A stretch of DNA of 64,000 bases, taken from a virus. Lineage: Duplodnaviria > Caudoviricetes. Location of the stretch: IMG/VR virus record IMGVR_UViG_3300046779_001841, positions 1 through 64,000 of that record, one strand, 5' to 3'. A program made the position numbers and the translations under genes. The notes under the pieces are model-generated. The model did not search any database. It was not told the origin of the DNA and was given only the letters and a program-made list of their open reading frames with translations. Position 1 is the stretch's first letter, and each line of letters starts with the position of its first letter. Of the stretch, positions 7,123 through 51,904 are shown piece after piece.

Positions 7123-7510
7123 GTGTCAATAATCTATTGATATTCTATTCTTTAAGAAACAAACATTCTTAAAGGATTTCAAATATGTATTTTTCAAAAA
7201 GATCCAGTCTTCAAGCAAGACTTGCTATGATTAATAATCAATTTTCTATCTCTAAAAAGTCCAGCGGAAATAAAAATCAATTTGTCTTAGATTTGGAAAA
7301 AATATTTAAAAAACCATTTTTTCCATATCGCAACGGCTTTAGTCTATCAATTAAAGTTCCATTTGGTCTTTTTCAACTAGTAGTGCAAGAACATAATAAT
7401 AAATATGATGTTACTGTTATTGATACTGAATATGGGGATGAATACACCTTAAAAGGTTTTAAAGAAAACGAAGTTCAAGAATTTATTAAACAATGGAAGA
7501 AAAAAGAAGG
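7113..7510 (+). repeat. About 400-bp direct repeat, copy 1 (copy 2 at 7834-8229)
   Basis: Runs from TTGGGATTAAGT (end of nrdB) through the upstream region and most of the small gene to AAAAAGAAGG, highly similar in both copies. Confidence 0.9.
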
Positions 7511-7550
7511 CTTCTTTAATTGGTTATTTATGTTTTCAAACATTGTATGA
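7185..7550 (+). CDS. Leader-family small protein (MYFSKRSSLQARLAMI), paralog A
   Basis: AAGGA RBS, a variant of the shared N-terminal leader, and paralogy to 7904-8236. Confidence 0.8.
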   Translation: MYFSKRSSLQARLAMINNQFSISKKSSGNKNQFVLDLEKIFKKPFFPYRNGFSLSIKVPFGLFQLVVQEHNNKYDVTVIDTEYGDEYTLKGFKENEVQEFIKQWKKKEGFFNWLFMFSNIV

Positions 7551-7562
7551 AAAGCAACTATA

Positions 7563-7658
7563 TTTATTTTAGAGTAATTTTGTTCCTGTTTGTTTCTCAA
7601 AGATTTTTGCCATTTCTTGACCATCTACACCTAGAAACACTTTTTTGATTTTAGGTGT
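7563..7658 (-). pseudogene. Orphan 3' fragment of the gene at 8503-8865
   Basis: 96 bp matching 8497-8592 with 3 mismatches. Encodes TPKIKKVFLGVDGQEMAKIFEKQTGTKLL plus stop, with no 5' part. Confidence 0.8.
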
Positions 7659-7821
7659 GAGATTTCATTGGGGTATAGATGAAGATATGTATGGTGATGT
7701 AAATCTTGGTATGCCAAGATTTACAGGTGATGCGAAAACTTGGGGATTTGAGAGAACATTTGAGCAAATAGAAAAAGATGTAAAAGAACAGATGTGGCAG
7801 ATTAAAACATACCACTCTTAA
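7657..7821 (+). CDS. Short ORF or gene remnant (VRFHWGIDEDMYG...TYHS)
   Basis: 54-codon open frame from GTG with coding-like composition, starting exactly at the junction of the duplicated fragment. No clear RBS. Confidence 0.3.
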   Translation: MRFHWGIDEDMYGDVNLGMPRFTGDAKTWGFERTFEQIEKDVKEQMWQIKTYHS

Positions 7822-7833
7822 CAGTGATATGTT

Positions 7834-8229
7834 TTGGGATTAAGTCAATATTCTATTGATATTCTCTTCTTTAAGAAACAAACATTCTTAAAGGATTTCA
7901 AATATGTATTTTTCAAAAAGATCCAGTCTTCAAGCAAGACTTGCTATGATTAATAATCAATTTTCTATCTCTAAAAAGTCCAGCGAAGATAAAAACCAAT
8001 TTGTCTTAGGTTTGGAAGAAATATTAAAAAAAGAATTTAAACAAGATCGCAATGGCTTTAGTCTATCAATTAAAGTTCCATTTGGTCTTTTTCAACTAGC
8101 AGTTCAAGAACATAATAATAAATATGATGTTACTGTTACTGATATTCAATATGGTTATGGATACACTTTAAAAGGTTTTAAAGAAAACGAAGTTCAAGAA
8201 TTTATTAAACAATGGAAGAAAAAAGAAGG
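7834..8229 (+). repeat. About 400-bp direct repeat, copy 2
   Basis: Matches 7113-7510 with a 2-bp indel upstream of the gene and clustered substitutions inside it. Confidence 0.9.
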
Positions 8230-8236
8230 TGCTTAG
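7904..8236 (+). CDS. Leader-family small protein, paralog B
   Basis: First 27 aa identical to 7185-7550, with diverged internal patches. Confidence 0.8.
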   Translation: MYFSKRSSLQARLAMINNQFSISKKSSEDKNQFVLGLEEILKKEFKQDRNGFSLSIKVPFGLFQLAVQEHNNKYDVTVTDIQYGYGYTLKGFKENEVQEFIKQWKKKEGA

Positions 8237-8280
8237 ATTTTTTATTGTATCTTTCTCTTAAAAAAGAAAGGTGTCTTAAA

Positions 8281-8511
8281 ATGAAATTACTCGAACCAAG
8301 AGAACATTTTGATCATTGTATTACTGGTCTAAATCATGAAAACACTAAAGCTATTTACGATATAGATAAAGTTATTGAAAAAATAATGTATCTGCAGGAA
8401 ATTGATTATGATGATGCAGTCGATTGGTTTGGTTATAATACTATTAGTGCTTTTGATCCAACAGATGAAGAAGCACCGATCTTTATGTATACCGATTTTA
8501 TTTTAGAGTAA
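8281..8511 (+). CDS. Conserved phage hypothetical protein
   Basis: AAAGGT RBS. The pattern FDHCITG...IYDIDKVIE...DAVDWFGYN...APIF is typical of an unnamed phage family. Confidence 0.7.
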   Translation: MKLLEPREHFDHCITGLNHENTKAIYDIDKVIEKIMYLQEIDYDDAVDWFGYNTISAFDPTDEEAPIFMYTDFILE

Positions 8512-8865
8512 TTTTGTTCCTGTTTGTTTCTCAAAGATTTTTGCCATTTCTTGACCATCTACACCTAGATACATCTTTTTGATTTTAGGTGTAGTTCCTT
8601 TAAGTGGATTGTAAAATTTCAAATCAAATAATCCATCATCATTTAATTCTATTCTAACATTATCTACACCTTTTCCAAAAATAAGCGGTGTCTGTATCAT
8701 CACACCTTTTCCATTTTGAGTTGGTAGAATTGACATACCTGTGGCCGCTAAAATAGATGCTTCACCACCTAAAGTATCTAAAATGACTTGTGCAGATTCA
8801 CTCATACCTGCAAACTTCAATTTAGCTAAACGAGTTTGAAGGGAAGATAGCTTTCTATTAAACAT
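8503..8865 (-). CDS. Leader-family protein (MFNRKLSSLQTRLAKLKFAG) with a phage hypothetical domain
   Basis: Leader variant, AAGGA RBS, body ILDTLGG...FEKQTG. Confidence 0.8.
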   Translation of the reverse strand: MFNRKLSSLQTRLAKLKFAGMSESAQVILDTLGGEASILAATGMSILPTQNGKGVMIQTPLIFGKGVDNVRIELNDDGLFDLKFYNPLKGTTPKIKKMYLGVDGQEMAKIFEKQTGTKLL

Positions 8866-8924
8866 GATGTTTTATCCTTTTGAAAAAAGTTTGTTTTCAA
8901 AAAGAAAAGATTATTTAAAGTTTA

Positions 8925-9719
8925 TTAATCTTCCCAATCATTTTCTGCTTCAGACATTGCACCCCATTTAGTCATGTGTAATTCACTCACACCACCAGCA
9001 GGTCTTTCTGCAATTCTCTTGTGATGTATTTCTTGTTTCAAATTTAAAAAGATACCTGCAAAAGTCTTACTCCATTCTTTGGTTCTTAATCCATTTAAAC
9101 CATAATCCATCCATACTTGTCTAAACACTGGATTTTCAAAACCATCTAATTGATGATATTGATAACCTAACTTATCTAACTTATCTAGGATCAAACTTTC
9201 AAATTTAGTTTCATCATCAAATTCATTAGTTTTGCTAAACAATGGTATGATATGTGTTTCCAAATCACTAAGAATAGATACAAACATTGCTTTCTCTTTA
9301 TTGAGATCTGAAATAATATCTTTCTCAAAATTTGCATTTGGAATATTCCATTTTTGAGCAAGACTACTATATTCATTTTTAGCTTTGTCTGGATCAATCT
9401 CATATATAGTCTTTACTTGAGATTGAACATATTCTGCATTAGTGGAAATATACCAATTTGTAATCTCAATATGTTTCTTATTATTGAGATTAGTAATTTG
9501 AAAACCATCTGCAACATCTTCACAATTATTCTTGTCAAAGATAGAACATGGTATTCTTGAAATTTCATTTGCTTTAGGTGTTTCAGTAAATTTTGAAAGT
9601 TCTAAAGTCAATTTTCTTTTTTCTATTGAACCACCATTATACAATTCATCTGCAAGACTTGGCAAATGCCATATCTTTGCTGGATTTAATCTGCCATTTG
9701 TTATTTGTTTGCTAAACAT
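8925..9719 (-). CDS. Hypothetical protein
   Basis: 264-aa ORF with GGAG RBS, second gene downstream of the 32-bp motif at 10144-10175. Confidence 0.75.
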   Translation of the reverse strand: MFSKQITNGRLNPAKIWHLPSLADELYNGGSIEKRKLTLELSKFTETPKANEISRIPCSIFDKNNCEDVADGFQITNLNNKKHIEITNWYISTNAEYVQSQVKTIYEIDPDKAKNEYSSLAQKWNIPNANFEKDIISDLNKEKAMFVSILSDLETHIIPLFSKTNEFDDETKFESLILDKLDKLGYQYHQLDGFENPVFRQVWMDYGLNGLRTKEWSKTFAGIFLNLKQEIHHKRIAERPAGGVSELHMTKWGAMSEAENDWED

Positions 9720-9730
9720 CTTTTACTCCT

Positions 9731-10102
9731 TTAATCTGTAAATCCAAGATCATTTCTTAAAAATTTAAATTCATCAATGACAAGATTTGGATTATTCATC
9801 AAATCTTCCCATTTGTATGAGATTTCAGAATCTTCAAATCTTTCAGAATCTTTAAAATCTTCATCATCTTCATCTTTTACATACATTCCAATATAAATGC
9901 CATGTCCACCATAAACACTAATGGTGTATTTGTAATTGTGACTTTGAAGACAATTCTTATGAACCATATAGAAACCACCTGCTTTGATTTCATTTTTTAG
10001 AGAAACCTTAGAAGTGTTTAAAACTTCACAAAGCATTTTGGTAGCTTCTTCTAATTGTCCATCATTCCATGATTTGGTATTCATTAAATCTTGCATTGTC
10101 AT
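9731..10102 (-). CDS. Hypothetical protein (putative early gene)
   Basis: AAGGA RBS, first gene downstream of the conserved 32-bp motif. Confidence 0.75.
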   Translation of the reverse strand: MTMQDLMNTKSWNDGQLEEATKMLCEVLNTSKVSLKNEIKAGGFYMVHKNCLQSHNYKYTISVYGGHGIYIGMYVKDEDDEDFKDSERFEDSEISYKWEDLMNNPNLVIDEFKFLRNDLGFTD

Positions 10103-10143
10103 TTGATTTTCCTTTCAAGAAAACTTTTCACTATCGACATATC

Positions 10144-10175
10144 TATAACACTTGTGATCGTGCAACCTTTGCAAC
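10144..10175 (-). promoter_or_regulatory. Class-E conserved element GTTGCAAAG-N14-AGTGTTATA, copy 1
   Basis: One of six copies with identical 9-bp ends and 14-bp spacing, upstream of 9731-10102. Confidence 0.8.
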
Positions 10176-10225
10176 AGAGATTAAATTTTTTTCATGTATT
10201 ATAGAAAAAACGAAAGGATGAAAAA

Positions 10226-10528
10226 ATGAAAGTTCGTATAGTCAAAATTTATGATGATCCAAATGATGATGCTTTTATCTTTATAGAAGCAGATATTTTT
10301 AAATCTAAACACCAGCCAGATCCAGATGAAAGAATTGTAAATCGAATAGAAAAAAAAGAAGCCTATGCTAAAAGCAGTCCAGCTAAAACACTTAAAAACA
10401 ATAATTTGATTTCTCTTGATAAAGAAGAAATCATTGATGATATTGTATATCAAGATCTTGGTATGTTTAATTTTTCATATATGTATTTTTATATGCTACT
10501 GCAAAATTTATTCTCAAGATTGCTTTAA
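10226..10528 (+). CDS. Hypothetical protein
   Basis: 100-aa ORF with AAGGA RBS. Confidence 0.6.
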   Translation: MKVRIVKIYDDPNDDAFIFIEADIFKSKHQPDPDERIVNRIEKKEAYAKSSPAKTLKNNNLISLDKEEIIDDIVYQDLGMFNFSYMYFYMLLQNLFSRLL

Positions 10529-10596
10529 GAAAGAAAAACAAAACACTTATATTATAAGTATCTCAAGTGTTTTCAATTATAAAGAAAGAGAAACAA

Positions 10597-12687: not shown

Positions 12688-12698
12688 TTTTTGTCTTA

Positions 12699-12707
12699 TA
12701 ATATAAG
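12699..12707 (+). promoter_or_regulatory. Class-M motif TAATATAAG
   Basis: Exact copy 33 nt upstream of ATG 12741. Confidence 0.55.
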
Positions 12708-12740
12708 TATTTTTGCCACTAACAACAAAAGGAAAAACAA

Positions 12741-13079
12741 ATGGCAAATCCAGAACAAATTCAAAAGCTAAAAGAAAAATTAGCTGATCTCAAATCCACC
12801 ATTAAAGTAAACCAAATCACTATTTCAAGAGTAGTAAAAGGTCGTGCTGGTGATACCTTCGTTTCTATGAATGCAACTTATGGTAGCAAAGATGATACAG
12901 AAAACACTGAAAGTTTATCTTTATCTGATGCAAAATTAGCTTCTTATCTTTTAGGTATGCAAGTAAATGTTGTTGCACATGAACAGGCTTGTGCATCTGG
13001 TATTATTACATCAGCACAACTTGATAATGCTAAACAACATTTGAAATCAAATTTCAACAAACTTATGACTGGTGAATAA
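12741..13079 (+). CDS. Hypothetical protein
   Basis: AAGGA RBS, within the replication module. Confidence 0.75.
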   Translation: MANPEQIQKLKEKLADLKSTIKVNQITISRVVKGRAGDTFVSMNATYGSKDDTENTESLSLSDAKLASYLLGMQVNVVAHEQACASGIITSAQLDNAKQHLKSNFNKLMTGE

Positions 13080-13081
13080 GA

Positions 13082-24076: not shown

Positions 24077-25354
24077 TTATTTTCCATAACTTGCTTTGGT
24101 AGCATTGTAATTATTCAATATCGTTGCATCACTTAGTGTATCATTCCATATATGTAAAGCACCTAATCTAAAATTAGCACCTGCACCACTTCCCATATTT
24201 GTTGCAGTAGGATAACCAAGAGCATAGTATAAACCTTTGGTTTCTGTATTATATGGTGTTTGTCTATTGAGTGTTGCAGAACCAGCTGATTGACCATTAA
24301 CATAAGATCTTAATGTTGTCCCATCATAAGTATAACCTACATAATGCCAAGTATTAAGTGATGCAGATACTGATGATGTAATTGTAGATGATGGATTAAG
24401 TTCGGATGTTTGTAGTGTATAAGAACCTTGAGATGGTCTTTTCCAAGCAACCTTTAAACCTTCACCACCACCATATTCTTGCATTCTAGCTTTAAATGAA
24501 TAAACAGTTCCTGCAGTTAAAGAGATAGTGCCTGTATGTAAAGAGAAGTTATTACTCATACCATGACCACCATACCAAGACACAACAACAGATCCATTTA
24601 TAATTAGATCACTACCATCATCTGAATCAATAGCAAAAGTGTATGTGCCTGTTTCAACTGGAACAAAAGTAGCATTAACTTCAAGAGAAAAATACTCGCC
24701 TGAATTAGGCACCACAGCACCTGCACTAGTTAAAGTAGTATATATAGAATTGTTTAAAGAAGTAGAAGCATTTAAATTACCATTCCAAGCAAGAGTAGTA
24801 TTTGAATATGCAGTATTAAATAATCTATCGAACTCAGATGTTGTTAAAGGATAATTTGCATATTGAGAAGAACTACCATTACCACCATGAGTGCTATATA
24901 TATTAACTCTTGTTTGTCCAGAGTATGGAAACACTGCAAATCTAGGTGTACCACTAATCCATTCAATTTGAGATATATTCCAACCATTAGAACTACTTTG
25001 AGATGTATTTCCTTGTTCTGTTAAGATCACACCATTACTCGTAGGGTAAACCCAAGTAAATACAGAAATCACTTCACTTGTATTCGCAGGAGATAAAGAA
25101 GAATTAAGATTAGTATTCGTTCGTATATAATTAGAAGATCCACTATCTAAAGATAAGTATTTTGGAGAACCACTTGTATAAGGAACAGAACCAACAAGAG
25201 TACCATTATTTGTGCTATCTAAATCAGTTATTGTAGATCCAGAACCACTATAAGAAGAAGTATCTTGAATATTCCAATAAGTGATCATAGAATCGCCAGA
25301 GATAAATGAGTATGTAGTAGTAGGTTTAACAATACCATGAGTAGCTAGAAACAT
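24077..25354 (-). CDS. LamG/ConA-like lectin protein with inserted PA14 domain (putative adhesin)
   Basis: TWHYVGYTYDG..LRSYVNG (LamG), YTFAIDSDDGSDLIING and QEYGGGEGLKVAW (PA14), N-terminal MFLATHGIVKP. Confidence 0.8.
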   Translation of the reverse strand: MFLATHGIVKPTTTYSFISGDSMITYWNIQDTSSYSGSGSTITDLDSTNNGTLVGSVPYTSGSPKYLSLDSGSSNYIRTNTNLNSSLSPANTSEVISVFTWVYPTSNGVILTEQGNTSQSSSNGWNISQIEWISGTPRFAVFPYSGQTRVNIYSTHGGNGSSSQYANYPLTTSEFDRLFNTAYSNTTLAWNGNLNASTSLNNSIYTTLTSAGAVVPNSGEYFSLEVNATFVPVETGTYTFAIDSDDGSDLIINGSVVVSWYGGHGMSNNFSLHTGTISLTAGTVYSFKARMQEYGGGEGLKVAWKRPSQGSYTLQTSELNPSSTITSSVSASLNTWHYVGYTYDGTTLRSYVNGQSAGSATLNRQTPYNTETKGLYYALGYPTATNMGSGAGANFRLGALHIWNDTLSDATILNNYNATKASYGK

Positions 25355-25356
25355 TT

Positions 25357-26115
25357 TTATAAACCATAACTTGCTTTGGTTGCATTATAATTATTAAGAA
25401 TAGTCGCATCACTAATGGCATCATTCCAAACATGAAATGCACCAAGTCTAAAAGATCCATCCGCACCACTACCCATATTTGTACTTGATCTATAACCTAT
25501 GTTATAATAATAACTTGTTGCACCATCATTATAAGGAGTTTGTCTATTGTTCTTAGCAAGAGAACCAGCAGGCTGACCATTAATATAACCTTTTAATGTA
25601 GAACCATCATAGGTGAAACCAATATAATACCAAGTGAAAGTACTAATTGTTAGTGTAGAAAGTAAAGTTTGAGTAGTTATTGATGTATACGGCCAAACAG
25701 CAAATCTTACTTTATTTCCACTTACCATTTCTATTTGAGAATCAAACCAATTAGTATCTGGATTCGTAGAACCTTGTTCGGATAAAACAAGACCAATAGT
25801 AGTTATAGGATATATCCAAATAAAAAGAGAAAGTGTAACACCAGTATTCGCAGGTGAAAGATATGGATTTAAATTTGCAGTATTAATATAGCGATCTTGT
25901 CTATTATCAAAATTAAAATAATTTGGAGAACCACTAACATAAGATAAAGCACCTACAATAGTACCATTAACAGATCCATCAAGGTCAGTAATAGTAGTTC
26001 CAGAACCATTATAGCAAGAAGTGTTTTGAAAATCCCAATAAGTGATCATACTTGCACCAGTAATGAAAGATGAAGTAGATGCAGGTTTGATAATACCATG
26101 AGTAGCTAGAAACAT
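25357..26115 (-). CDS. LamG/ConA-like lectin protein (putative adhesin), paralog without PA14
   Basis: Start at ATG 26115 (MFLATHGIIKP) after AAGGA. TWYYIGFTYDG..LKGYING, with a C-terminus nearly identical to 24077-25354. Confidence 0.8.
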   Translation of the reverse strand: MFLATHGIIKPASTSSFITGASMITYWDFQNTSCYNGSGTTITDLDGSVNGTIVGALSYVSGSPNYFNFDNRQDRYINTANLNPYLSPANTGVTLSLFIWIYPITTIGLVLSEQGSTNPDTNWFDSQIEMVSGNKVRFAVWPYTSITTQTLLSTLTISTFTWYYIGFTYDGSTLKGYINGQPAGSLAKNNRQTPYNDGATSYYYNIGYRSSTNMGSGADGSFRLGAFHVWNDAISDATILNNYNATKASYGL

Positions 26116-27418: not shown

Positions 27419-27716
27419 AGGCAAACTACTAGATAGTAGATTTATGAAGATTGCAAAAAATTTGGCAAAACTCTTAGAAGCTAAGAACGAAGCCTATGGT
27501 AATGCTTTCACAAAAATTACAGAAATCTTAAAGATTTTGTATCCAGATGGTATTAAACCAGAACAATATCAAGATCTAGGATTAGTGATTAGAATTTTAG
27601 ATAAACTTTCAAGAATTGCCAAAGACAATGATCCTTTAGGTGAATCACCATTTCAAGATATAGCAGGATATGCTATTCTTGCTCAAACAATTAAGAAAGA
27701 ACTAACGAAGGTTTAA
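27405..27716 (+). CDS. Nucleotide-modification-associated domain protein (DUF1599-like)
   Basis: LLEAKNEAYGNAF, RILDKLSRI and ESPFQDIAGYAIL match this small all-alpha phage family. Confidence 0.7.
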   Translation: MSQLKGKLLDSRFMKIAKNLAKLLEAKNEAYGNAFTKITEILKILYPDGIKPEQYQDLGLVIRILDKLSRIAKDNDPLGESPFQDIAGYAILAQTIKKELTKV

Positions 27717-28367
27717 TCGTCTTTCTTCTCTTCTTCTATCTGCATCTCTTTCCATTGACCAAATTGCATCAGGATGCACGAAGTTCTTCTTTAAATAATT
27801 TTTCTCTTTTACATTACCTTTACCCCAATGATCTAAGAATTTTTTCATAATAACTTTATCTTTTCTTAGATCAGTAATCCATTGTTTATTTGTACCATGA
27901 TCTGCAATTACAAAAGCATTGTAACCTTTACGACTTAATAAGAAAGGTAACATATACTTCTCATCTTTAAAGAAATCTGGTGCAAAATTATTGATACGAC
28001 TAAATAGAAACCTATTCAAATCGATTGATGGAGTATTGTTTAGATACTCAGAAAGAAAAGCATGATCTGTTTTTAGATTCTTGGCATATAATAAAAACTC
28101 ACCTGTTGTTGAAAACATTTTAGAGTATTCATCTGTATGATTTAATAAATAATGATAAAATTGCATATCAATCTTAGCACCAAATGGTTTCCAAAAAAGT
28201 TCTTTCATTTCTTGATGAAAATCAGTCGCTTTTGAACGATCTTCCCAGCTTAAACCTTGTGCATTTAAAGTTGCGATCTTTTCTTCATAGGTATCAATTA
28301 AAGAAGAACTTGCTTTTTCAAGTCTAGCAAGTCTTGCTTCAAGAGAAGCAAGTTTAGTAAAATACAT
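27702..28367 (-). CDS. Leader-family protein (MYFTKLASLEARLARLEKAS)
   Basis: Leader motif, AAGG RBS and a class-L motif upstream. Confidence 0.8.
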   Translation of the reverse strand: MYFTKLASLEARLARLEKASSSLIDTYEEKIATLNAQGLSWEDRSKATDFHQEMKELFWKPFGAKIDMQFYHYLLNHTDEYSKMFSTTGEFLLYAKNLKTDHAFLSEYLNNTPSIDLNRFLFSRINNFAPDFFKDEKYMLPFLLSRKGYNAFVIADHGTNKQWITDLRKDKVIMKKFLDHWGKGNVKEKNYLKKNFVHPDAIWSMERDADRRREERRLNLR

Positions 28368-28406
28368 AGTATTAACCTTTCTGTTGTTCTTATTTTAAGA
28401 CAAGAA

Positions 28407-28421
28407 TATAAAAAGATTATT
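28407..28421 (-). promoter_or_regulatory. Class-L motif AATAA-N4-TTTATA
   Basis: AATAATCTTTTTATA, 39 nt upstream of 28367. Confidence 0.5.
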
Positions 28422-28475
28422 ATATCCATTCTATATATGGTGCTTTAGCATATATAAGTGAGAAAGGCATTAATC

Positions 28476-29024
28476 ATGTATAGAAAAAAATCAGATCTTG
28501 AACCAATGCTTGGTTATCCTGCAGGTATTTGCCAAGTTGTAGATCGAATAGATGATAATATTAAAAATGAAGATTTAGAAAAAGATCTTATCAGTAAAGT
28601 AGAAAAAGCAGAAGATTTAGACAATCAAGAAGCATTACTTGTATATCCAAGAATTTTAGAAACACCAATCGAAAACAATAAACTATATAACTTGATCGAA
28701 TTATCAAGTCATGCACAATATCGTATGGATTTACGAGGTGTTACAGTAGGCGATATTAAAGTTGCTCTTAAACATTTTGTTAAGAAATTTTATAATGAGA
28801 AATCTCAAAACACTGCTCAATATATAGTTTGGGAAAAAGCTATTCAAAGAGGTACTGATATGGTGTTTTTAGATACTAGATTAGGTAATCTCTTTTTATC
28901 TTTTGTTATTCTTAAAGGTAAAGTTGTTATCAAAACTTGTTATTTTAAAGATGAGAATAATCCAAGACCAAAGACTTGCAGAAAAAAACTTGCCATGTTG
29001 CGATTTAGATTAAATAATCTCTAA
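28476..29024 (+). CDS. Hypothetical protein with DUF4258-like HAxxRMxxRG motif
   Basis: SSHAQYRMDLRGVT. The C-terminus KKLAMLRFRLNNL resembles the leader motif. Confidence 0.6.
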   Translation: MYRKKSDLEPMLGYPAGICQVVDRIDDNIKNEDLEKDLISKVEKAEDLDNQEALLVYPRILETPIENNKLYNLIELSSHAQYRMDLRGVTVGDIKVALKHFVKKFYNEKSQNTAQYIVWEKAIQRGTDMVFLDTRLGNLFLSFVILKGKVVIKTCYFKDENNPRPKTCRKKLAMLRFRLNNL

Positions 29025-41571: not shown

Positions 41572-41939
41572 AAAAGAAAATCATTGAAGTAAATAATAAG
41601 AAAGAGATGGATGCTTGGACAACATATTCTTATGTAACAGAACCATCACATGAAATTAAATATTTAAAGGGTGTAGAAGACACAGTGTTTTTTCAAGGTA
41701 GTGGTGCAAGTAGGAGGAGAGTAGCACCTTATTATATACCACCACTTAAAAATACAGATCCAGAAGTTTTAAATTTGATAGATGAATATCATGCGAGTGT
41801 TTTTAAATTAGAAGAAGCATATAAAGAATGGGATCTGAAAAGAGTAGAGATGTTAGGCAAATTGCGAGTGATGTCTGGCATTTTACCAAAGCCATATGAA
41901 GATATAGCAGTGATGATGAAAGACATCACTAAATCTTAA
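41568..41939 (+). CDS. Hypothetical protein
   Basis: AAGGA RBS, ATGA overlap with the previous gene. Confidence 0.7.
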   Translation: MKKKIIEVNNKKEMDAWTTYSYVTEPSHEIKYLKGVEDTVFFQGSGASRRRVAPYYIPPLKNTDPEVLNLIDEYHASVFKLEEAYKEWDLKRVEMLGKLRVMSGILPKPYEDIAVMMKDITKS

Positions 41940-41952
41940 TAAATCATTTATA
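41938..41952 (+). promoter_or_regulatory. Class-L motif AATAA-N4-TTTATA
   Basis: AATAAATCATTTATA, 50 nt upstream of 42003. Confidence 0.5.
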
Positions 41953-42002
41953 CTTATAGTATTAAGGAATGTAATAATTTTCTAAACAAAAGGATCATTA
42001 AA

Positions 42003-42380
42003 ATGATTAGTCAAAAATTAGCTTCTTTAGAAGCAAGAATCGCTAAGTTAGAGCAATCTAGTGTATCCACTAAAAAAGCATCTACTTCTTTAGATCTTCG
42101 ATCTATTATAGTTGCTCTTAAGAGTGTAACTAAAGGTAAAAACTGGAAATGGAAGATTCAAGGTAGTGATAAAATCACAGGATTTTATTTCGATGAGATG
42201 ATAGATGGTGCAGTATTTGTTGAGTTTAAAGATCAAGGTACAAAAACCTTAATCGTTCTTGATACAGGTGATTACGACCAACATACTGTGCTTGTAGATA
42301 CTGATGCTGATGTAATGGTTATTGCTAAAACAATTATTAAAGCTATTTACAACTATGATCTGTTGGGTAAATTCTTTTAA
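42003..42380 (+). CDS. Leader-family protein (MISQKLASLEARIAKLEQSS..KKAS)
   Basis: Leader motif, AAGGA RBS. Confidence 0.85.
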   Translation: MISQKLASLEARIAKLEQSSVSTKKASTSLDLRSIIVALKSVTKGKNWKWKIQGSDKITGFYFDEMIDGAVFVEFKDQGTKTLIVLDTGDYDQHTVLVDTDADVMVIAKTIIKAIYNYDLLGKFF

Positions 42381-42406: not shown

Positions 42407-42814
42407 ATGATTAGTCAAAAATTAGCTTCTTTAGAAGCAAGAATCGCTAAGTTAGAGCAATCTAGTTTAACCACTAAAAAAGCATCCGCTTTTAATATTC
42501 GTGAAGTTAAAGATTATGTGAAAAACCAAATCAAGAATTGGGGATTTAGTGTTTCACAACCTTCAAAAAATGAAATCTATGCTACAAATGAAGGTAGCAG
42601 AATCAGTGCAGGTATTCCAAAAGAATATTGGTCTTTTACCTTTACTCCAAAACAGGATGGCATTAAGATGGATTATGTAACTGAAGGTTTAAATGATTAC
42701 GATAATTCAAGTTATGATGAGAGTATTTTATTTGAATTTGACGATCCAGAAATTTCTGCTGATATTAATATGTATATTGGTGAATATATTGTTTTAAGAG
42801 TGACTAGATCCTAG
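42407..42814 (+). CDS. Leader-family protein (MISQKLASLEARIAKLEQSS..KKAS)
   Basis: First 20 codons and RBS identical to 42003, with an unrelated body. Confidence 0.85.
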   Translation: MISQKLASLEARIAKLEQSSLTTKKASAFNIREVKDYVKNQIKNWGFSVSQPSKNEIYATNEGSRISAGIPKEYWSFTFTPKQDGIKMDYVTEGLNDYDNSSYDESILFEFDDPEISADINMYIGEYIVLRVTRS

Positions 42815-43827: not shown

Positions 43828-43855
43828 TTTTATATACCAATGAACTTAATTTTTT

Positions 43856-44925: not shown

Positions 44926-45429
44926 ATGATTAGTCAAAAATTAGCTTCTTTAGAAGCAAGAATCGTCAAGTTAGAACAATCTGGCAACAAACAAGCAAGT
45001 CAAACTCGAAATGCAGGTTGGACACCAGGTTCTGGTGCTATGCCAACAGCTAAAGATCTTTTTAAGAGTATTGGTTTATATTTAGACAAAAGACATAACA
45101 TTAGCTGGGAATTAAAACATGATAAGTCACAAGGTAATTCTGGCAATGGTATGATTGAAATCAAATTTGGTGAAGACTATTCTGTTGGTGATCCTGGTTA
45201 TACTGCAAGTGCAATATATGACTTTCGAGTAAGAACAGATTTGATGTCAGGTGAAACACAACTTATTTTTAATATTACACCAACAAAAGAATTTAGAGGA
45301 TTTGCTTCTAGTAAGACTTTTGTCCTTGATTTTTATCAAGGACAACCACAAAGAGAATGGGATATGCAAATCATTCAAATTACAGAATGGCTACAAAAAT
45401 TTCATGATAATTTAGAATCAAACTATTGA
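44926..45429 (+). CDS. Leader-family protein (MISQKLASLEARIVKLEQSGNKQAS..RNAG)
   Basis: Leader motif, with RBS region identical to 42003. Confidence 0.85.
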   Translation: MISQKLASLEARIVKLEQSGNKQASQTRNAGWTPGSGAMPTAKDLFKSIGLYLDKRHNISWELKHDKSQGNSGNGMIEIKFGEDYSVGDPGYTASAIYDFRVRTDLMSGETQLIFNITPTKEFRGFASSKTFVLDFYQGQPQREWDMQIIQITEWLQKFHDNLESNY

Positions 45430-45761
45430 TATTTTTTAATCCATTCATGTTCTGTACCTAGACCACAACAATATTTACTATCTTCTATCGTCCATTGTGT
45501 TCTTGATTTTCCTCTTTTAGATTTAAGTGCTTTCTCAGCTTTCATTGCAGTTGAACGATCTGGATATGTTCCATATAATGCTTTTGGCACCCAAGGTCTA
45601 TATTTAGAGGTATAGGTGGCTCCACCATGTATCTCTCCATTATGTTGCCTTAATCTTCTTTCATAATCTGTAGTGCATCCTACATAATAAAAGCCTTCAA
45701 GTTCTTTACCTGTTTTACTATATCTCTTCTGTTGAGATTGAAGTACATATACATACCACAT
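45423..45761 (-). CDS. SLX1-like GIY-YIG endonuclease
   Basis: WYVYVL, YYVGCTTDYERRLRQHNG, GGATYT..RPW and AMKAEKALK. Confidence 0.88.
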   Translation of the reverse strand: MWYVYVLQSQQKRYSKTGKELEGFYYVGCTTDYERRLRQHNGEIHGGATYTSKYRPWVPKALYGTYPDRSTAMKAEKALKSKRGKSRTQWTIEDSKYCCGLGTEHEWIKKYQ

Positions 45762-45778
45762 AGTCCATATCCTTTGTG

Positions 45779-45793
45779 AATAAATGATTTATA
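45779..45793 (+). promoter_or_regulatory. Class-L motif AATAA-N4-TTTATA
   Basis: AATAAATGATTTATA, 52 nt upstream of 45846. Confidence 0.5.
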
Positions 45794-45845
45794 CTTATAT
45801 CATTTGTGTGAATGTTTAATAATTTTTCTAAAAAGGATCAATAAA

Positions 45846-46388
45846 ATGATTAGTCAAAAACTCGCTTCTTTAGAAGCAAGGATCGCTAAACTCGAAAGTA
45901 AAAAAGCAGGTGTTGGATTAAGACCTAAGTCACCATCTCAAATTAATTATGTAACACCAAATGTTGAAGATGTTGCACACATGATTCAACTTATTCTTGG
46001 CAATACTTTTCATCGTTTTATGTCTAAACAAAATAGTGGTAGTGGTCTAATAGTTATTATGGATAGTTCATTCTATAAAGATGAAGATTTTTTCTTTCAT
46101 CCAGAAGATACTATCGAACAACACAATAATGTCATAGCAAATATGACTGTTAATATTGTTCTTGAAGAAGGTGTGATGGATGATGAAATGTCTTACATTA
46201 GTCCTTATGGAGATGAAATGGATGATTATGCCTTAGAACTAAAACCTGTTACTACTTTTGCTACTATCACTTTTAAAGCCTTAGGTAAAGTTAAAACAGT
46301 TGAAGTTTCTTTTGGAATTGGAAGTACTTTAAAAAAAGTTCAAGCACAAATGAAACCACTTGTAGCTTTTTATAATTCATTTAGATAA
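45846..46388 (+). CDS. Leader-family protein (MISQKLASLEARIAKLESKKAG)
   Basis: Leader motif, AAGGA RBS. Confidence 0.85.
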   Translation: MISQKLASLEARIAKLESKKAGVGLRPKSPSQINYVTPNVEDVAHMIQLILGNTFHRFMSKQNSGSGLIVIMDSSFYKDEDFFFHPEDTIEQHNNVIANMTVNIVLEEGVMDDEMSYISPYGDEMDDYALELKPVTTFATITFKALGKVKTVEVSFGIGSTLKKVQAQMKPLVAFYNSFR

Positions 46389-46425
46389 AAATCTCTATTG
46401 AAAAAGCTATTATCTTTTGTTTGTG

Positions 46426-46440
46426 AATAAATCATTTATA
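46426..46440 (+). promoter_or_regulatory. Class-L motif AATAA-N4-TTTATA
   Basis: AATAAATCATTTATA, 51 nt upstream of 46492. Confidence 0.5.
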
Positions 46441-46491
46441 CTTGATGATTTATATGAATGTTTAATAATTTTAATAAAAGGATAATCTAAA

Positions 46492-47016
46492 ATGATTAGT
46501 CAAAAAATCGCTTCTCTTGAAGACCGTCTTGCTAGATTAGATCGATCTAACTTAACAAACAAAAAATCTTCTTTTCGTGATAAGACTTCTTCAAGTTTTA
46601 CACCTCCAGATATTTACAATATTTGTCATATTGATTTTGATTTCTTAAAGAAAGAATTAGAAAAAACTTATTCAGATTATGACCTTACACTTTCTAAGCT
46701 AGAATCTAATTTTCCTGGACATTACGATGTTCTTTTTTTCCTAGAATATGGAAAACATGAATTTTTACAGGTTCTTATTTCTTTAAGAGTGGGAAAAGGT
46801 GATGAAAAAATTACTGTTGGTGTTGATCTAAAATTTGAACATGACGATCCAGATGCTCAATTCTCAGAAAGTACTGCGAAAGATTATAAATTAAAGGATA
46901 TAGATTCTACTATAAATCATAAAATAATTAAGTATGTAAAAGAAACATATACTGATAGTTTGAATCTTTTAAATTTCAAAATTGAACTCGCAGAAGAATA
47001 CCATCCTAAATATTGA
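46492..47016 (+). CDS. Leader-family protein (MISQKIASLEDRLARLD)
   Basis: Leader variant, AAGGA RBS. Confidence 0.85.
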   Translation: MISQKIASLEDRLARLDRSNLTNKKSSFRDKTSSSFTPPDIYNICHIDFDFLKKELEKTYSDYDLTLSKLESNFPGHYDVLFFLEYGKHEFLQVLISLRVGKGDEKITVGVDLKFEHDDPDAQFSESTAKDYKLKDIDSTINHKIIKYVKETYTDSLNLLNFKIELAEEYHPKY

Positions 47017-47064
47017 TTTTATAATCATCTCTATTAAAAAATCTATATATCATTGGAGATGATT

Positions 47065-48852
47065 ATGAAACCTACTTTATCAGAATTTATTGATTCAGCT
47101 AAAGAATCACTACTTGCTATTATTGAACAATCTAAAAGATTAAAGAAAACTTTCAACACTGAAAGAACTTTTGTTGCAGAATTGAAAACAAAAGCAAATT
47201 TTAAGAAATTTATGAAAGACTATGCAGGTAAAAAAAACCTAGAAACTAGAATCAATCCACTATCATATATTGTTAGAGATGCTTTATTTGACCCAACTTA
47301 TGATTTAAATGCTAAACTTATTGATTTGGAATCTTTCCTAAGAATGTCTTATAAAGAAACTTATCCAGAAGATACAAAAGCAGAAAGAGAAAGAGAAAAA
47401 AGAAGTAAAGCATTTGAAAAAGATGTTCGTGGAACACAAAAAGCAGAAACACAAGCTAAGAAAGATTATGTTGCGATCTTTACTACAATGAACTCTGTAT
47501 TACAAACAGATTTTACACAATCAAATGGTAACAGTCGAGTATTTACAAGTAAATTGAAAGCCTATGGTCAAAGTTCAAATAATGCTATTGGCAAATTCAT
47601 TGAAACATATTTTGCAGGTAGTGATAATGCAGAAAGCAGGATTAACACTTTTATCTATGCAATAAGAGATAACTACTTTCCATCCACATCACCAGATGCA
47701 CCTAAAAATCCAAGAGCAATGTTTGATAAAAAACTTGCAGGTATTGTTAAGTCATCACATAAAAATAGAGTGTTAAATGAAGAAAGAGAAGCACTAGAAT
47801 CTGTTATTCCAGAATCCTTTTTGCAATATTTACCAAGTACTTTAATCGTTGAAGTAGATAAGAACAGTAAAATCACAAAGATCCGATCTAAATTTGCAGA
47901 AAGAATTAATGACATTGGTGCAAAAATTGAAAGACAAAAAGATTTACTCAAGAACTTAACTAAACTTGAATTGAAAATCAAAAAAGATCTTAAAAGCACT
48001 GATCATGATACTAAGATGAAAGCACTTATTATCTATTTAATGCTAGATACTGGTATTCGACCTGGTGCAGAACAAAATAAGATTAGAAATCCTGATTTTG
48101 AAGTCGATGCTCTTACAGATGAAGATGATGAAGATGAATATGATGAATTTTTAGAAACTTATGGTGCGACCACTCTTAATAAACAACATATTCTTTTTGT
48201 TAGAGAGAATTTTATATCTTTAAAGTTTAGAGGTAAAAAAGGTACAATCAATTTGGCAGATATAAGTGATGCAACTTTAGTTAAAGCCATTAAAGATCTT
48301 GTAGAGAAAACACGAAATGTGGAAAGAAGTAATTATCTTTTCTTAGATAGTGCAGGTCAAATTTTTGACCAACCAAAAATCACTGCATATTTAAGAGCAA
48401 TTATTCCTGGTCTTAATTTAACAGATTTTAGAAAATTGAAATCATCAAGAGTTCTTTTAGATGCTTTAAGAGAGAAACAAGAAATTCTTTTACAAAAGAT
48501 TTATGATTTGAACCAACAACAAGTAGAAGATTTAAAAGAACAAGTCATTTCTTTAATTGAAGAAGTTGTTGAAGAATCTTTTGAACAATCTATGGTTGCA
48601 TTAAGTCATCAGAATATGAACACTACTATTAAATCTTATATCAATCCACAAGTCTTACTTAATTTCTTATCCACTGGTAAAGTAGCAGATAAACTTGAAG
48701 ATATTGTTTTAAATCAACAAAATTTGAAATTTGACCCACAAGTCTTTATTACATCTGCAATAGCTTATGGTAGTGCTATTGGTGAATTGACACAAGGTGC
48801 ATCAACAACAAGGACTGCATCTTTAAGAGAATTGTTTAGAATGATAGCTTAA
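47065..48852 (+). CDS. DNA topoisomerase IB with long N-terminal extension
   Basis: TGIRPG (catalytic R), YGATTL, FRGKKG, DFRKL and LSH...KSYINP (catalytic H and Y). ATG 47065 is 7 nt after GGAG. Confidence 0.85.
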   Translation: MKPTLSEFIDSAKESLLAIIEQSKRLKKTFNTERTFVAELKTKANFKKFMKDYAGKKNLETRINPLSYIVRDALFDPTYDLNAKLIDLESFLRMSYKETYPEDTKAEREREKRSKAFEKDVRGTQKAETQAKKDYVAIFTTMNSVLQTDFTQSNGNSRVFTSKLKAYGQSSNNAIGKFIETYFAGSDNAESRINTFIYAIRDNYFPSTSPDAPKNPRAMFDKKLAGIVKSSHKNRVLNEEREALESVIPESFLQYLPSTLIVEVDKNSKITKIRSKFAERINDIGAKIERQKDLLKNLTKLELKIKKDLKSTDHDTKMKALIIYLMLDTGIRPGAEQNKIRNPDFEVDALTDEDDEDEYDEFLETYGATTLNKQHILFVRENFISLKFRGKKGTINLADISDATLVKAIKDLVEKTRNVERSNYLFLDSAGQIFDQPKITAYLRAIIPGLNLTDFRKLKSSRVLLDALREKQEILLQKIYDLNQQQVEDLKEQVISLIEEVVEESFEQSMVALSHQNMNTTIKSYINPQVLLNFLSTGKVADKLEDIVLNQQNLKFDPQVFITSAIAYGSAIGELTQGASTTRTASLRELFRMIA

Positions 48853-48924
48853 TAAAATTTTTGTAAAAATAAAAAAGAAAACTTATAAGCATAAGTGCAT
48901 TCTCACAACAAAAGGAAAAATGAA

Positions 48925-49500
48925 ATGCACTCATTAATCAAAATCAAAAAAGATCGTGTGTCTTTAGATGTTACTGGCAAGACATTGACATTAGGATTTA
49001 ATTCTTTTCGTATTGGTGTTAATATGAATATTCCATCATCATTGGATATTATTGATAACAATATTTGTGTGTCTTTTGAAAATCAAACATATTCGTTCGC
49101 TGGTTTAAATTTAAAAGAGATTGAGATCAGTCCAACACCTGTTAAACAAGAACCACCTAAAATTGTAAAAAAACAAAAGCCTACTCTCAATGCAAAAAGA
49201 TATTGTTTAGATGTTGAAAGATTACATCCTTTGACTGCATCTGTATTACTCGCTTGTTCAAAAGAAAACTTATCAAGAACTGAAATTTTTCAAAAAATCT
49301 TAGATAAGAAGAATTATGAGAAATTTCTAAATTTGGAAAAGTATCGTAGAAGTTATGATTACTATCGTCCACTACTTTGGGCTTTGGAAAAAGAAGGTAT
49401 GTTAGCTTGTGATTATACTGCTGGCAGACAAGCGAAGCAACATCGTTTTGCGACTACACAAAAAGGTATGGATTTTCTTCTTCAAATTAGATCAAAATAA
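48925..49500 (+). CDS. Hypothetical protein with C-terminal winged-helix-like domain
   Basis: SRTEIFQKI...LLWALEKEGML...RFATTQKG resembles a PadR/wHTH pattern. Confidence 0.55.
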   Translation: MHSLIKIKKDRVSLDVTGKTLTLGFNSFRIGVNMNIPSSLDIIDNNICVSFENQTYSFAGLNLKEIEISPTPVKQEPPKIVKKQKPTLNAKRYCLDVERLHPLTASVLLACSKENLSRTEIFQKILDKKNYEKFLNLEKYRRSYDYYRPLLWALEKEGMLACDYTAGRQAKQHRFATTQKGMDFLLQIRSK

Positions 49501-49511
49501 ATTTCATAATC

Positions 49512-49543
49512 GTTGCAAAGATTGCTAATCCATAAGTGTTATA
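49512..49543 (+). promoter_or_regulatory. Class-E element, copy 6
   Basis: GTTGCAAAG-ATTGCTAATCCATA-AGTGTTATA. Confidence 0.8.
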
Positions 49544-49582
49544 TGTATGTCAATAATGACTAACACTTAAAGGATTTGAAAA

Positions 49583-50125
49583 ATGAATATTCAAGATTTC
49601 AAAAATAATGCTAATGCTCTTCTCATGGTAACAAGTGATGATTGGTCTAAAAATTTTATCCAATCTTTACTTGATCAAGTAAATGCAGGTAGGACTTTAA
49701 GTGAAAAACAATTAAATCTCTTTAACAAGAAGTTGGATAATATGTTAAATCCACCAGAACCTGTAGAAGTAGATCAAGAGTTCTTAAAGCAAATAAATCT
49801 CTTGAAAACAAAAACAAAGTCTGCATGGCTTTTAGGTTTTTGTGATTCAATCACTACTCAACTTAAAGGTGGTAAAACATTAAGTGGAAAACAAATGGAT
49901 ATTTTTAAAGCTAAATATGACAAATTGGTTTTAAAGATTAAACCACCAAAAGAAATCCAATCTCTTGAAGAAGAAAGAAGAAATGATAGTGGTTGGAATG
50001 TATCCATTTCCACTGAATGGAATCATAGTTGGATTTGTGAAAGAGAAGATAGTGGTTGGGGTGGTGAGAGAGAAGATTCTGGTTGGGAAGGTGATGGTTG
50101 GGGTGGTAGTGATGGTGAATGGTAA
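49583..50125 (+). CDS. Hypothetical protein with duplicated helical module and Trp/Gly/acidic tail
   Basis: W..F..S+..Q...G+TLS.KQ occurs twice, and DSGW occurs three times near the C-terminus. Confidence 0.75.
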   Translation: MNIQDFKNNANALLMVTSDDWSKNFIQSLLDQVNAGRTLSEKQLNLFNKKLDNMLNPPEPVEVDQEFLKQINLLKTKTKSAWLLGFCDSITTQLKGGKTLSGKQMDIFKAKYDKLVLKIKPPKEIQSLEEERRNDSGWNVSISTEWNHSWICEREDSGWGGEREDSGWEGDGWGGSDGEW

Positions 50126-50158
50126 AAACAAAACACTTTCAAAACAAAGGAAAAACAA

Positions 50159-50491
50159 ATGACAAATTTAGTAAATTGCACACCACATGATGTTAAAATT
50201 CTTGTAAATGATAAAGAATTGGTTATCAAACCATCTGGTATTTTACCAAGAGTAGATCAAAAGAAAGAAGTTGGTCAAACACTTTCTTTTGGTGGTTTAG
50301 ATATTCCTACTATCACTACAAAAATAGGTGGTATTGTAGGATTGCCAGATCAAACAGAAAACACTTACTTAATTGTATCTGTTTTTGTTTTAGAAGAAGG
50401 CAAGAAAGCTGGTAGAACAGATTTACTTGCTCCAGATACTCTAAGAGATAGTGCAGGTAATATAATTGGTTGTAAAGGTTTCATATCTTAA
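50159..50491 (+). CDS. Conserved phage hypothetical protein
   Basis: NCTPHDV...PSG...GLP...LIVS...RTDLLAPD..RDSAGNIIGC is a pattern common in phages. Confidence 0.75.
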   Translation: MTNLVNCTPHDVKILVNDKELVIKPSGILPRVDQKKEVGQTLSFGGLDIPTITTKIGGIVGLPDQTENTYLIVSVFVLEEGKKAGRTDLLAPDTLRDSAGNIIGCKGFIS

Positions 50492-50497
50492 TATAAG
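50489..50497 (+). promoter_or_regulatory. Class-M motif TAATATAAG
   Basis: 30 nt upstream of 50528. Confidence 0.55.
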
Positions 50498-50527
50498 TAT
50501 ATACCTACACATAAAAGGGAAAAACAC

Positions 50528-51271
50528 ATGGAAGATTTTATCTGCAGTATTTGTGGTGAAAAACCACAAGAGATAGCAATCAAATGGAATCAAGACCTTA
50601 AAAAAGGTTGGTGTCTTTGTACAGAATGTAGAGATAAATATCGTGGTGTTAAACAACATAAAAATAGAATAGAGAAAGATAGCTATAATTATTTCACAAC
50701 CACTATCAGACAATTATTGCTTAGACATGGCTTTACTTTAAATGAAAGAACCACTGGCAGTTTAAGAATGGAAAATTTTGTTGCATGGTCTTTAAGAGCA
50801 ACTGCACCTAATGATTACTTTCTTAAAATCTCTTTAAATGTAGAAAGAAAAGAAGAAAGAGATTATCTTTATCAATGGACTATCAAGACATTTGATCCAA
50901 ATGATAATTATCTTAAACAGATAGAATCTGATAGACCAAATGTACCTATGATGAAAGATTTTTTAAATGAGTTTTTAACATATATCGGTAGCAATCCATA
51001 TGAATATTTTAGATCAACATTTAAATCCATTTTGACTAAACATAACATACCCATAGATGAAAAATCTGAAGATAGTGAAGTATCTACATATAAAGGAATG
51101 TATACAAGTAATCGGTATCGTTGGGAAGCAAAAATAGAAAAAGATTTTAAATGGAATGTAAAATTCTATGCACTCAAAGGAAAATCAAAGATACTAGAAG
51201 AATATTCTGGCAATTCCTTTGTCATTACACCATTGAAAGAATTTTTTAACAAGGTCGTTAAAAAATATTGA
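50528..51271 (+). CDS. Hypothetical protein with N-terminal zinc finger
   Basis: CSIC...CTEC. Confidence 0.7.
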   Translation: MEDFICSICGEKPQEIAIKWNQDLKKGWCLCTECRDKYRGVKQHKNRIEKDSYNYFTTTIRQLLLRHGFTLNERTTGSLRMENFVAWSLRATAPNDYFLKISLNVERKEERDYLYQWTIKTFDPNDNYLKQIESDRPNVPMMKDFLNEFLTYIGSNPYEYFRSTFKSILTKHNIPIDEKSEDSEVSTYKGMYTSNRYRWEAKIEKDFKWNVKFYALKGKSKILEEYSGNSFVITPLKEFFNKVVKKY

Positions 51272-51281
51272 GAGATTTTAA

Positions 51282-51527
51282 ATGTTAAAAGTTTTGTTTG
51301 TTGTGAAGAATGAAGAAATCATATCTATTCTAAATGAATCCATAGAAATGGTCTTACCTGTAGAATATGATTATATTGTATGGTTGCCTATGAATATTTG
51401 GTTTGGCAATCATGTTCGATTTATTAGTGATCGTAAAGTAGAAAGAATAAAAGATTTAAATCCAAAGAGATACATATATATCAAAGAAGTATGGGATAAA
51501 TTTAAAGAAGATATAAAACAAGATTAA
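51282..51527 (+). CDS. Hypothetical protein
   Basis: 81-aa ORF in the same orientation, GAGA upstream. Confidence 0.55.
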   Translation: MLKVLFVVKNEEIISILNESIEMVLPVEYDYIVWLPMNIWFGNHVRFISDRKVERIKDLNPKRYIYIKEVWDKFKEDIKQD

Positions 51528-51529
51528 AC

Positions 51530-51904
51530 TTATCCAATAAAACTTTCCCAAGTATCTACAATATCTTCTAAAAATTTTTTAGCAACATCTAGCTTAATTT
51601 CTGTTGTTTTACTTGCTTTAAAATTATGATTTAGATCTTTAGTTTTACCTTCTGCATTCTTAAAGATAACTTTAATAACACCATCACGATGTTTTTTCAT
51701 AGAAATAACAGCAGAACCTGAACCATCTTTAGCAATAATTTCATAATCTCTTTCTGCTTTAATATCATAGTTTTTTTTAGGAAACTTAGTAGGTAGAAAT
51801 TCATCAAAAAATTCAATATAGTCTTCATATTCTTCTTTTGCAATACGAAGTGTTTGAATTTTTGCAAGACGGGCTTCAAGAGATGCGAGTTTACGATTAA
51901 ACAT
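51530..51904 (-). CDS. Leader-family protein (MFNRKLASLEARLAKIQTLRIA)
   Basis: Leader motif, AGGA RBS. Confidence 0.85.
   Translation of the reverse strand: MFNRKLASLEARLAKIQTLRIAKEEYEDYIEFFDEFLPTKFPKKNYDIKAERDYEIIAKDGSGSAVISMKKHRDGVIKVIFKNAEGKTKDLNHNFKASKTTEIKLDVAKKFLEDIVDTWESFIG

Follow-up and report, generated by a model that had tools for sequence, protein, structure and literature searches.

A leader shared by dissimilar small proteins of an uncultured jumbo phage: a possible capsid-targeting propeptide

Introduction

In the first 64,000 nucleotides of IMG/VR record IMGVR_UViG_3300046779_001841 (the whole stretch analysed, hereafter the window), a virus of the Caudoviricetes, ten small open reading frames (ORFs) begin with nearly the same peptide and continue into bodies that look dissimilar. 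Why would a phage place one leader on so many different proteins? A sequence-only reading of the window had proposed that the leader is a modular signal that loads a library of variable effectors into the head, as the capsid-targeting sequence (CTS) of phage T4 does for its internal proteins. From comparisons of sequences, we put the probability at about 0.5 that the leader is a targeting propeptide resembling the T4 CTS and cut by an unrelated, HK97-type head protease. Relative to the earlier reading, the boundary site, the link to head maturation, the promoter class, the turnover of the loci and the leader families of related phages are new.

The genome is that of a complete uncultured jumbo phage (316,221 bp, ~30% G+C), of which the window forms the first 64 kb. 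The head module, at 280-301 kb, contains genes for a large terminase, a portal, a 1266-aa protein, a head maturation protease (matching phrog_18299), a scaffold (a 690-aa acidic coiled-coil protein) and a 293-aa HK97-fold capsid protein (NCBIfam NF042927, score over the cut-off). Judged by the capsid protein and protease, the relatives are LR745208.1 (an uncultured phage of 485 kb and 55% G+C), Tunturiibacter phage Tunturi_5 and Bacillus phage G, with the cluster C mycobacteriophages being more distant. The capsid protein (285973-286854, minus strand) is 87.5% identical to that of LR745208.1 (396421-397287), whereas the proteases are only 41% identical and the G+C contents are 30 and 55%, respectively. 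Such high capsid identity across this G+C gap may reflect either an unusually constrained shell or a recent exchange of the capsid gene.

Occurrence and anatomy of the leader

All ten listed ORFs were found to start with the leader M-x3-K-L-A-S-L-E-A-R-L-A-K-L. For 44926 and 45846 (genes are named here by the position of their first base), the leader is given by the ATG behind an AAAGGA ribosome site, and the longer GTG/TTG ORFs are upstream extensions. The leader consists of Met and three variable residues, the heptads K-L-A-S-L-E-A and R-L-A-K-L-E-x, a short polar linker and, at residues 21-27, [KR]-x-[AS]-[SGA]; the two heptads (KLASLEARLAKLE in this phage) have the pattern of an amphipathic helix. 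The S-L-E of the helix has Q in three members and is missing from a divergent set of leaders (class 2) described below.

Across the six frames of the 316,221-bp genome, the strict pattern gave 12 matches, every one at ORF residue 5. A whole-genome scan with a hidden Markov model (HMM) of the leader, which the earlier reading had called for, returned 12 strong matches (E<1e-10) and one divergent match at 85232 on the plus strand (E 0.002), and the next hits were noise at E of at least 0.29. There are thus 13 leader genes genome-wide, or 21 with looser variants: the looser core [KR][LIVM][AS]S[LIVM] occurs in the first 35 residues of 21 called genes, compared with 0.9 in shuffles. An unbiased, all-against-all comparison of N-termini recovered one 21-gene family, in which 64 of 66 links were without body similarity. 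This family takes in four minus-strand genes near 150 kb (149825-152353), whose class 2 leaders combine an initial M(Y/F)(S/T)QR with one or two R-L-A-S-L-R units and then K-K-A-S or R-K-S-S. Two class 1 leader genes on the plus strand are interleaved with these four, and together they form a duplicated divergent unit.

The claim that codons differ between copies while residues are kept stood up, as the codon examples given were correct. Synonymous change is common, with nonsynonymous (dN) and synonymous (dS) divergences of 0.13 and 1.31, respectively, between 42003 and 152536, and a median dN/dS of 0.41 over 57 pairs. Because synonymous differences are frequent and the residues are kept, the peptide is under selection. 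In the youngest copies (42003, 42407 and 44926), the DNA of the ribosome site and of the leader is nearly the same, suggesting cassette exchange. In particular, the first 80 nt of 42003 and 42407 are 98% identical and the DNA is unrelated beyond, the drop falling right after the leader. The description of the leader as modular was borne out: it is strictly N-terminal, stands on sequence-different bodies and has been exchanged between bodies and loci.

Beyond this genome, a 30-column leader profile matched 48 of 1.84 billion protein representatives at E<=0.001. Among these, 45 matches began at protein residue 1, nearly all on proteins of 100-200 aa, and the remaining three were long repetitive proteins. 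The matches that were traced came from a few related freshwater metagenome contigs. No match to the profile was found in LR745208, phage G or Tunturi_5, where the leaders differ; the exact degenerate DNA pattern of the leader was present on no other IMG/VR contig; megablast of the 41-47 kb cluster gave no match in the phage collection; and the leader sequence, searched as a string, was not found in the literature.

Separately, a second common N-terminus, M-F-(L/K)-A-T-H-G-I-x-K-P, stands on three virion-structural-like proteins of the window (24077-25354, 25357-26115 and 51960-52664, all on the minus strand), with two of the three links being without body similarity.

Diversity of the bodies

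By BLASTP, the only similarity among the bodies in the window was that between 7185 and 7904 (83% identity), and beyond the window a weak link joined 42407 to 152536 (E 0.001). The 54 collected members formed 41 BLASTP clusters, which merged into 38 groups after iterative profile search. Comparison of the body groups with hhalign added few links, yielding only one small superfamily around 44926; a search for homologues of the 44926 body that lack the leader turned up none, only close orthologues. In 12 of 14 homologous pairs, conservation was clearly higher in the leader than in the body; for example, 45846 and its orthologue P0017 share 17 of 17 leader residues and 42% body identity. None of the bodies matched Pfam, PHROGs or NCBIfam above threshold.

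Structure prediction gave one usable AlphaFold2 model for 51904 (predicted local distance difference test, pLDDT, 72), with a helix at residues 3-40, five strands and a C-terminal helix; the leader helix continues straight into the body helix. A fold search with this model against the PDB and BFVD libraries found no neighbour at E<=0.001. The model for 45846 was poor (pLDDT 49.5), with a layout roughly like that of 51904 and a leader preceding the unstructured residues 23-39. The Atlas model of 28367 gave weak matches, to helical-repeat proteins only. A helix-sheet-helix pattern was inferred by eye from several other body sequences. Thus, the claim that the bodies are mutually dissimilar apart from the 7185/7904 pair held at the BLASTP level, but some of the bodies may be very diverged versions of a single fold, although this cannot apply to all of them.

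A boundary site and its link to head maturation

Of 46 leaders from this genome and metagenomes, 37 contain [KR].[AS][SGA] within residues 17-28, mostly at 21-24; shuffled sequences yield 6.7, and residues 46-74 of these proteins yield 3. The other leaders have K-x-A-x instead. Similarity between leader members ends at this site. The body of 28367 has two homologues (P0002 and P0003) on a related contig, one with a longer linker and one with a different leader, and in all three proteins R-R-A-S or K-A-S lies immediately before the conserved body. Larger tagged proteins behave likewise when paired with their orthologues in G001, a 196-kb relative whose protease and capsid protein are 84 and 99% identical to those of this phage, respectively; in the one encoded at 130290, the leader core and K-A-S are kept, and the linker is changed and carries an indel.

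A related motif, [KR].A[SGA], recurs in proteins of the head module. The scaffold contains 12 [KR].A[SGA] sites against 3.4 expected, the top z-score of the proteome, and the motif is likewise enriched in the scaffold of LR745208 (11 against 2.95) and in the scaffold-like gp332 of Tunturi_5 (9 against 2.3). Of the 12 in this phage, nine have been retained across five relatives, with a conservation of 0.94 at motif positions and 0.79 for the rest. In three of four tested proteases, the motif occurs 3-4 times against about 1 expected, the remaining case being the Tunturi_5 protease (2 against 0.73, not significant). K-V-A-S is located just past the catalytic domain of the protease in this phage, phage G and Tunturi_5. 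No enrichment was seen in the capsid, portal, terminase or 1266-aa protein. Prohead proteases typically make many cuts in the scaffold and trim themselves, as reported for T4 and SPN3US (PMC9026906, PMC10052503). Because the motif is enriched in the scaffold and located at the domain boundary of the protease, we infer that [KR].A[SGA] is the putative cut site of the head maturation protease.

Several other features of the head region and its surroundings were noted. A 967-aa helical protein (306638-309541, minus strand) has the second-highest motif density in the proteome (nine [KR].A[SGA] against 1.6 expected) and an internal repeat, h-x-x-A-G-L-I-x-x-x-E-A; a role as a large head or ejection protein subject to processing is possible. 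Several head-module proteins (280-296 kb and 272598-273926) carry a C-terminal tail of the [KR]-[LIV]-A-x-x-[LY] type, including the protease (...RLAKILSLK), the product of the 280678 gene (...KLAKLY...) and a HAD/kinase-like protein (...RVASRLATLKKK...), while others end in RIANRY or KVARRWY. Such tails could be a C-terminal counterpart of the leader. At 295718-295760, a run of ~11 A breaks a frame encoding a leader-like extension, and the upstream HAD-like gene ends there. In G001 (about 7678), the 295134 orthologue is extended at its N-terminus by a stretch containing the leader-like R-L-S-S-L-K-T-R-I-K-R-A-S; the interruption at the A run may reflect a frameshift, an error of sequencing or a true difference.

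Promoter classes and timing

The genome contains three promoter-like classes. The first is a long sigma-70-like element (TTGCAAAG ... AAGTGTTATA, then often GTC-AT-AATGAC) before ~47 small unknown genes, forming an early class, and the second (ATAATATAAG) precedes recombinase, exonuclease and clamp genes, that is, functions in replication and recombination. The third (class L) is the AT-rich element AATA-N-T-N3-TTTATA, located 30-56 nt upstream of the start codon. Examples of the promoter classes in the window are found at 10145(-), 38250(-), 49534(+), 17141(+) and 18440(+). Scores at or above the class L cut-off were obtained for 2% of first-class genes and 18% of the remaining genes, and for none of the second class and none of the shuffled or intragenic controls.

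The leader genes rank top among class L scores. The exact AATAA-N4-TTTATA reported before four members was present before 28367, 42003, 45846 and 46492, with variants before 7185 and 7904. Most class L genes lack an annotation; those with one comprise, among others, head-module genes, a gene for a virion structural protein and a tail-fibre-like gene. Within the first 45 residues, [KR].A[SG] occurs in 19 of 50 class L products (1.8 expected), compared with 0 of 47 early-class products. This composition suggests that the leader genes are expressed together with virion genes, with late timing.

Turnover of the loci and leaders of related phages

In G001, the genes flanking the 150-kb leader cluster are kept at 86-95% identity and the genes between them are different; those in the interval begin with leader variants ending in K-K-A-x. 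LR745208 has its own 29-residue leader, which starts with MTTLRSKLIRLAH and ends with LLPLLKEA[AG] (K-E-A-[AG]), on seven proteins of 93-351 aa whose bodies lack similarity (e.g., 398173-398575 on the minus strand and 351543-351824 on the plus strand). One of these genes lies in the head module, between the scaffold gene and a decoration-like gene. In phage G (NC_023719.1), MKRLIKKA[SN] starts 17 (strict) to 25 otherwise dissimilar proteins, against 0.01 expected by shuffling. The tagged genes include those at 28218-28733 (gp38) and 255160-255879 (gp346). Among their products are one ferritin-like protein (gp346), one nucleoside deoxyribosyltransferase-like protein and one with a weak PARP-domain match, and several share H-G-T-S directly after the tag. 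gp346 is listed in the phage G particle proteome. In Tunturi_5, the N-terminus screen recovered a three-member family only.

Because LR745208 and this phage have capsids that are 87.5% identical, unlike leaders and proteases of 41% identity, the docking partner of the leader is more likely to be the scaffold or the protease than the shell. A wider proposal, which we hold tentatively and at well below even odds, is that the phage G/huge-phage lineage with this HK97-type capsid and protease uses a general address-plus-cut code, in which an amphipathic [KR]-L-x-x-L helix at the N-terminus precedes K-x-A-(S/G/A). The helix is different in each phage (KLASLEARLAKLE in this one, MTTLRSKLIRLAH... in LR745208 and MKRLIKKA in phage G), and under such a code the cut site would be common.

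Leader genes in the window

The leader genes of the window are located in several loci. At the left, 7185..7550 (plus strand, 121 aa) has the variant leader MYFSKRSSLQARLAMI, with KKSS at residues 24-27, and is a paralogue of 7904..8236 (plus strand, 110 aa), the two bodies being the 83% identical pair given above. The neighbouring gene at 8503..8865 (minus strand, 120 aa) has the leader MFNRKLSSLQTRLAKL, followed by KFAG. The longest product is that of 27702..28367 (minus strand, 221 aa), with a body that is probably helical; its class L promoter-like site at 28402..28421 (minus strand, AATAATCTTTTTATATTCTT), 34 nt before the ATG, has the top score of the class.

In the 41-47 kb cluster, whose leader genes and class L sites are all on the plus strand, a class L promoter-like site at 41938..41957 (AATAAATCATTTATACTTAT) precedes 42003..42380 (125 aa), which contains the leader at residues 1-17, a linker and KKAS at 24-27. 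The gene at 42407..42814 (135 aa) follows it without its own promoter site, as had been described. Further along, 44926..45429 (167 aa) has KQAS at 22-25 and a body in a small family with P0014, P0021 and P0029. Class L promoter-like sites at 45779..45798 and 46426..46445 precede 45846..46388 (180 aa, KKAG at 19-22) and 46492..47016 (174 aa, KKSS at 24-27), respectively; the coordinates of these two sites and of that before 42003 were derived from the distance to the gene. Finally, 51530..51904 (minus strand, 124 aa) ends the minus-strand row of tail-fibre genes.

Proposed mechanism and points against it

As a propeptide, the leader would act as follows. Leader genes would be transcribed together with virion genes, and each protein would be drawn into the prohead during assembly by its helix, which would most likely associate with the coiled-coil core of the scaffold. 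The head maturation protease, cutting the scaffold at the same kind of site, would then remove the leader, leaving the body of 80-190 aa free inside the capsid, from where it may pass into the cell along with the DNA. New bodies would be recruited by recombination in the leader DNA, producing the hypervariable loci. Cleavage, packaging, the binding partner, ejection and the body functions are all steps that we infer within this model.

Several observations weigh against the propeptide model. Several leader genes of the window adjoin tail-fibre genes, a position compatible with external docking as well, and the bodies are mostly acidic (isoelectric point 4.5-5.4), whereas the T4 internal proteins are basic. 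Sequence search found no relative of solved structure for the protease family, and phage G gp20 and gp21 showed no [KR].A[SGA] enrichment. The phage G particle proteome also contains many replication enzymes, which weakens gp346 as support. A K-L-A-S in the capsid protein was rejected as a cut site, as it sits in the conserved N-arm (G-R-x-K-L-A in relatives and R-V-A-L-A in phage G). The idea that the C-terminal tail of the protease copies the leader of its own phage was also rejected, since cognate pairs were no better than non-cognate pairs (empirical p 0.07-0.17). Complex prediction of the capsid protein with leader residues 1-45 scored 0.00, which is evidence neither way.

Alternative explanations

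The leader could instead be an uncut zipper that fixes interchangeable small proteins to a fibre, a whisker or the capsid surface, or that oligomerises them, without entry into the capsid. Heptads are the classic coiled-coil pattern, the leader genes have their late-type promoter class in common with fibre genes, several of them adjoin such genes, and the 51904 model runs the leader helix directly into the body helix. We consider such a docking helix unlikely: it leaves unexplained both the [KR]-x-[AS]-[SGA] behind a polar linker of variable length and the marking of scaffolds and protease boundaries by [KR]-x-A-[SGA], and the low-confidence 45846 model, in which unstructured residues follow the leader, speaks against it. 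The leader might also be merely the best-conserved part, an N-terminal helix, of a single old paralogous family of diverged helix-sheet-helix proteins rather than a modular tag. The order of helix, five strands and helix in the 51904 model, the roughly similar layout of the low-confidence 45846 model and the like pattern inferred by eye in several further bodies would fit such a family, and duplication has enlarged the set, as seen in its tandem arrays and in the 7185/7904 pair. However, the 28367 body (190 aa) weakly matches helical-repeat proteins only, homologous bodies bear different leaders, profile comparison joins few groups, and the fall of 42003/42407 DNA identity from 98% to none right after the leader points to cassette exchange. 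The analogous tag of phage G, moreover, stands on ferritin-like, nucleoside deoxyribosyltransferase-like and weakly PARP-like proteins. A single family is thus quite improbable as the explanation.

The N-terminal signals recognised by ClpX include short, basic, hydrophobic ones, and the leader might accordingly be read by a phage proteostasis set (ClpP-like, SspB-like and GroEL-like) that times degradation or folding. A GroEL-like gene is present in the window, an SspB-like gene occurs on a related contig, and phage G encodes ClpXP. Yet nothing links this set to the K-x-A-S motif in scaffolds, and the leader genes belong to the late promoter class, whereas the SspB-like gene belongs to the early class; a turnover or chaperone tag therefore appears very unlikely. 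Least probable of all is a recognition sequence for a modifying enzyme, in the manner of ribosomally synthesised and post-translationally modified peptides, with one radical-SAM maturase serving many precursors. The radical-SAM version is largely refuted, as no radical-SAM domain was found in the whole genome by a search that was positive in 14 of 14 control genomes, and the bodies are folded and 80-190 aa long, not short core peptides.

Comparison with known systems

In T4, IPI, IPII, IPIII and Alt have divergent mature parts behind a short common N-terminal CTS, which directs them to the scaffold core and is cut off by the prohead protease, and the sets of CTS-bearing proteins vary among T4-related phages (PMC9026906). 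The analogy that the earlier reading drew with these proteins is retained in part, as a purely functional one: this phage likewise has a common leader on mostly unrelated mature parts, a boundary site and hypervariable loci. It does not extend to the machinery, as neither a T4 gp21-type protease (PF03420) nor a gp23-type capsid protein (PF07068) was matched anywhere in the whole genome. Here, a leader of 22-27 aa contains a two-heptad helix and has K-x-A-(S/G/A) in place of L/I-x-E as its candidate cut site; the bodies are mostly acidic, not basic, and there are 13-21 members in this genome compared with four in T4.

In SPN3US, a phiKZ-like giant phage with the gp245 protease, many head proteins are reported to lose N-terminal propeptides, some of only 20-24 residues, and the protease to trim itself on its C-terminal side (PMC10052503). 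The K-V-A-S past the protease domain in this phage resembles the latter arrangement. In contrast, the propeptides of SPN3US are not one common sequence, whereas the leader here is a near-identical module on many bodies, and the SPN3US protease, unlike the one here, is of the T4 gp21 lineage. The cut motif of phiKZ-like proteases (SPN3US gp245) is (S/A/G)-x-E. Encapsulins and the HK97 protease provide another comparison, in which an HK97-fold shell is loaded via a short terminal cargo peptide (a C-terminal tail in the HK97 protease). The capsid protein of this phage is also HK97-fold, but these cargo peptides, unlike the N-terminal and putatively removed leader, are mostly C-terminal and not cut off.

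Implications

If true, the general code would list packaged, and possibly injected, proteins from sequence alone, amounting to dozens in phage G, including enzymes, and it would permit cargo loading into large HK97-fold capsids. The lineage includes phage G, the sole cultivated megaphage, which grows in the laboratory and for which virion mass-spectrometry data exist. The ~20 fast-changing small proteins per genome would be candidates for early host takeover or counter-defence. Overall, clip-off capsid address tags, as known from T4, would then have arisen separately with another protease and another cut site.

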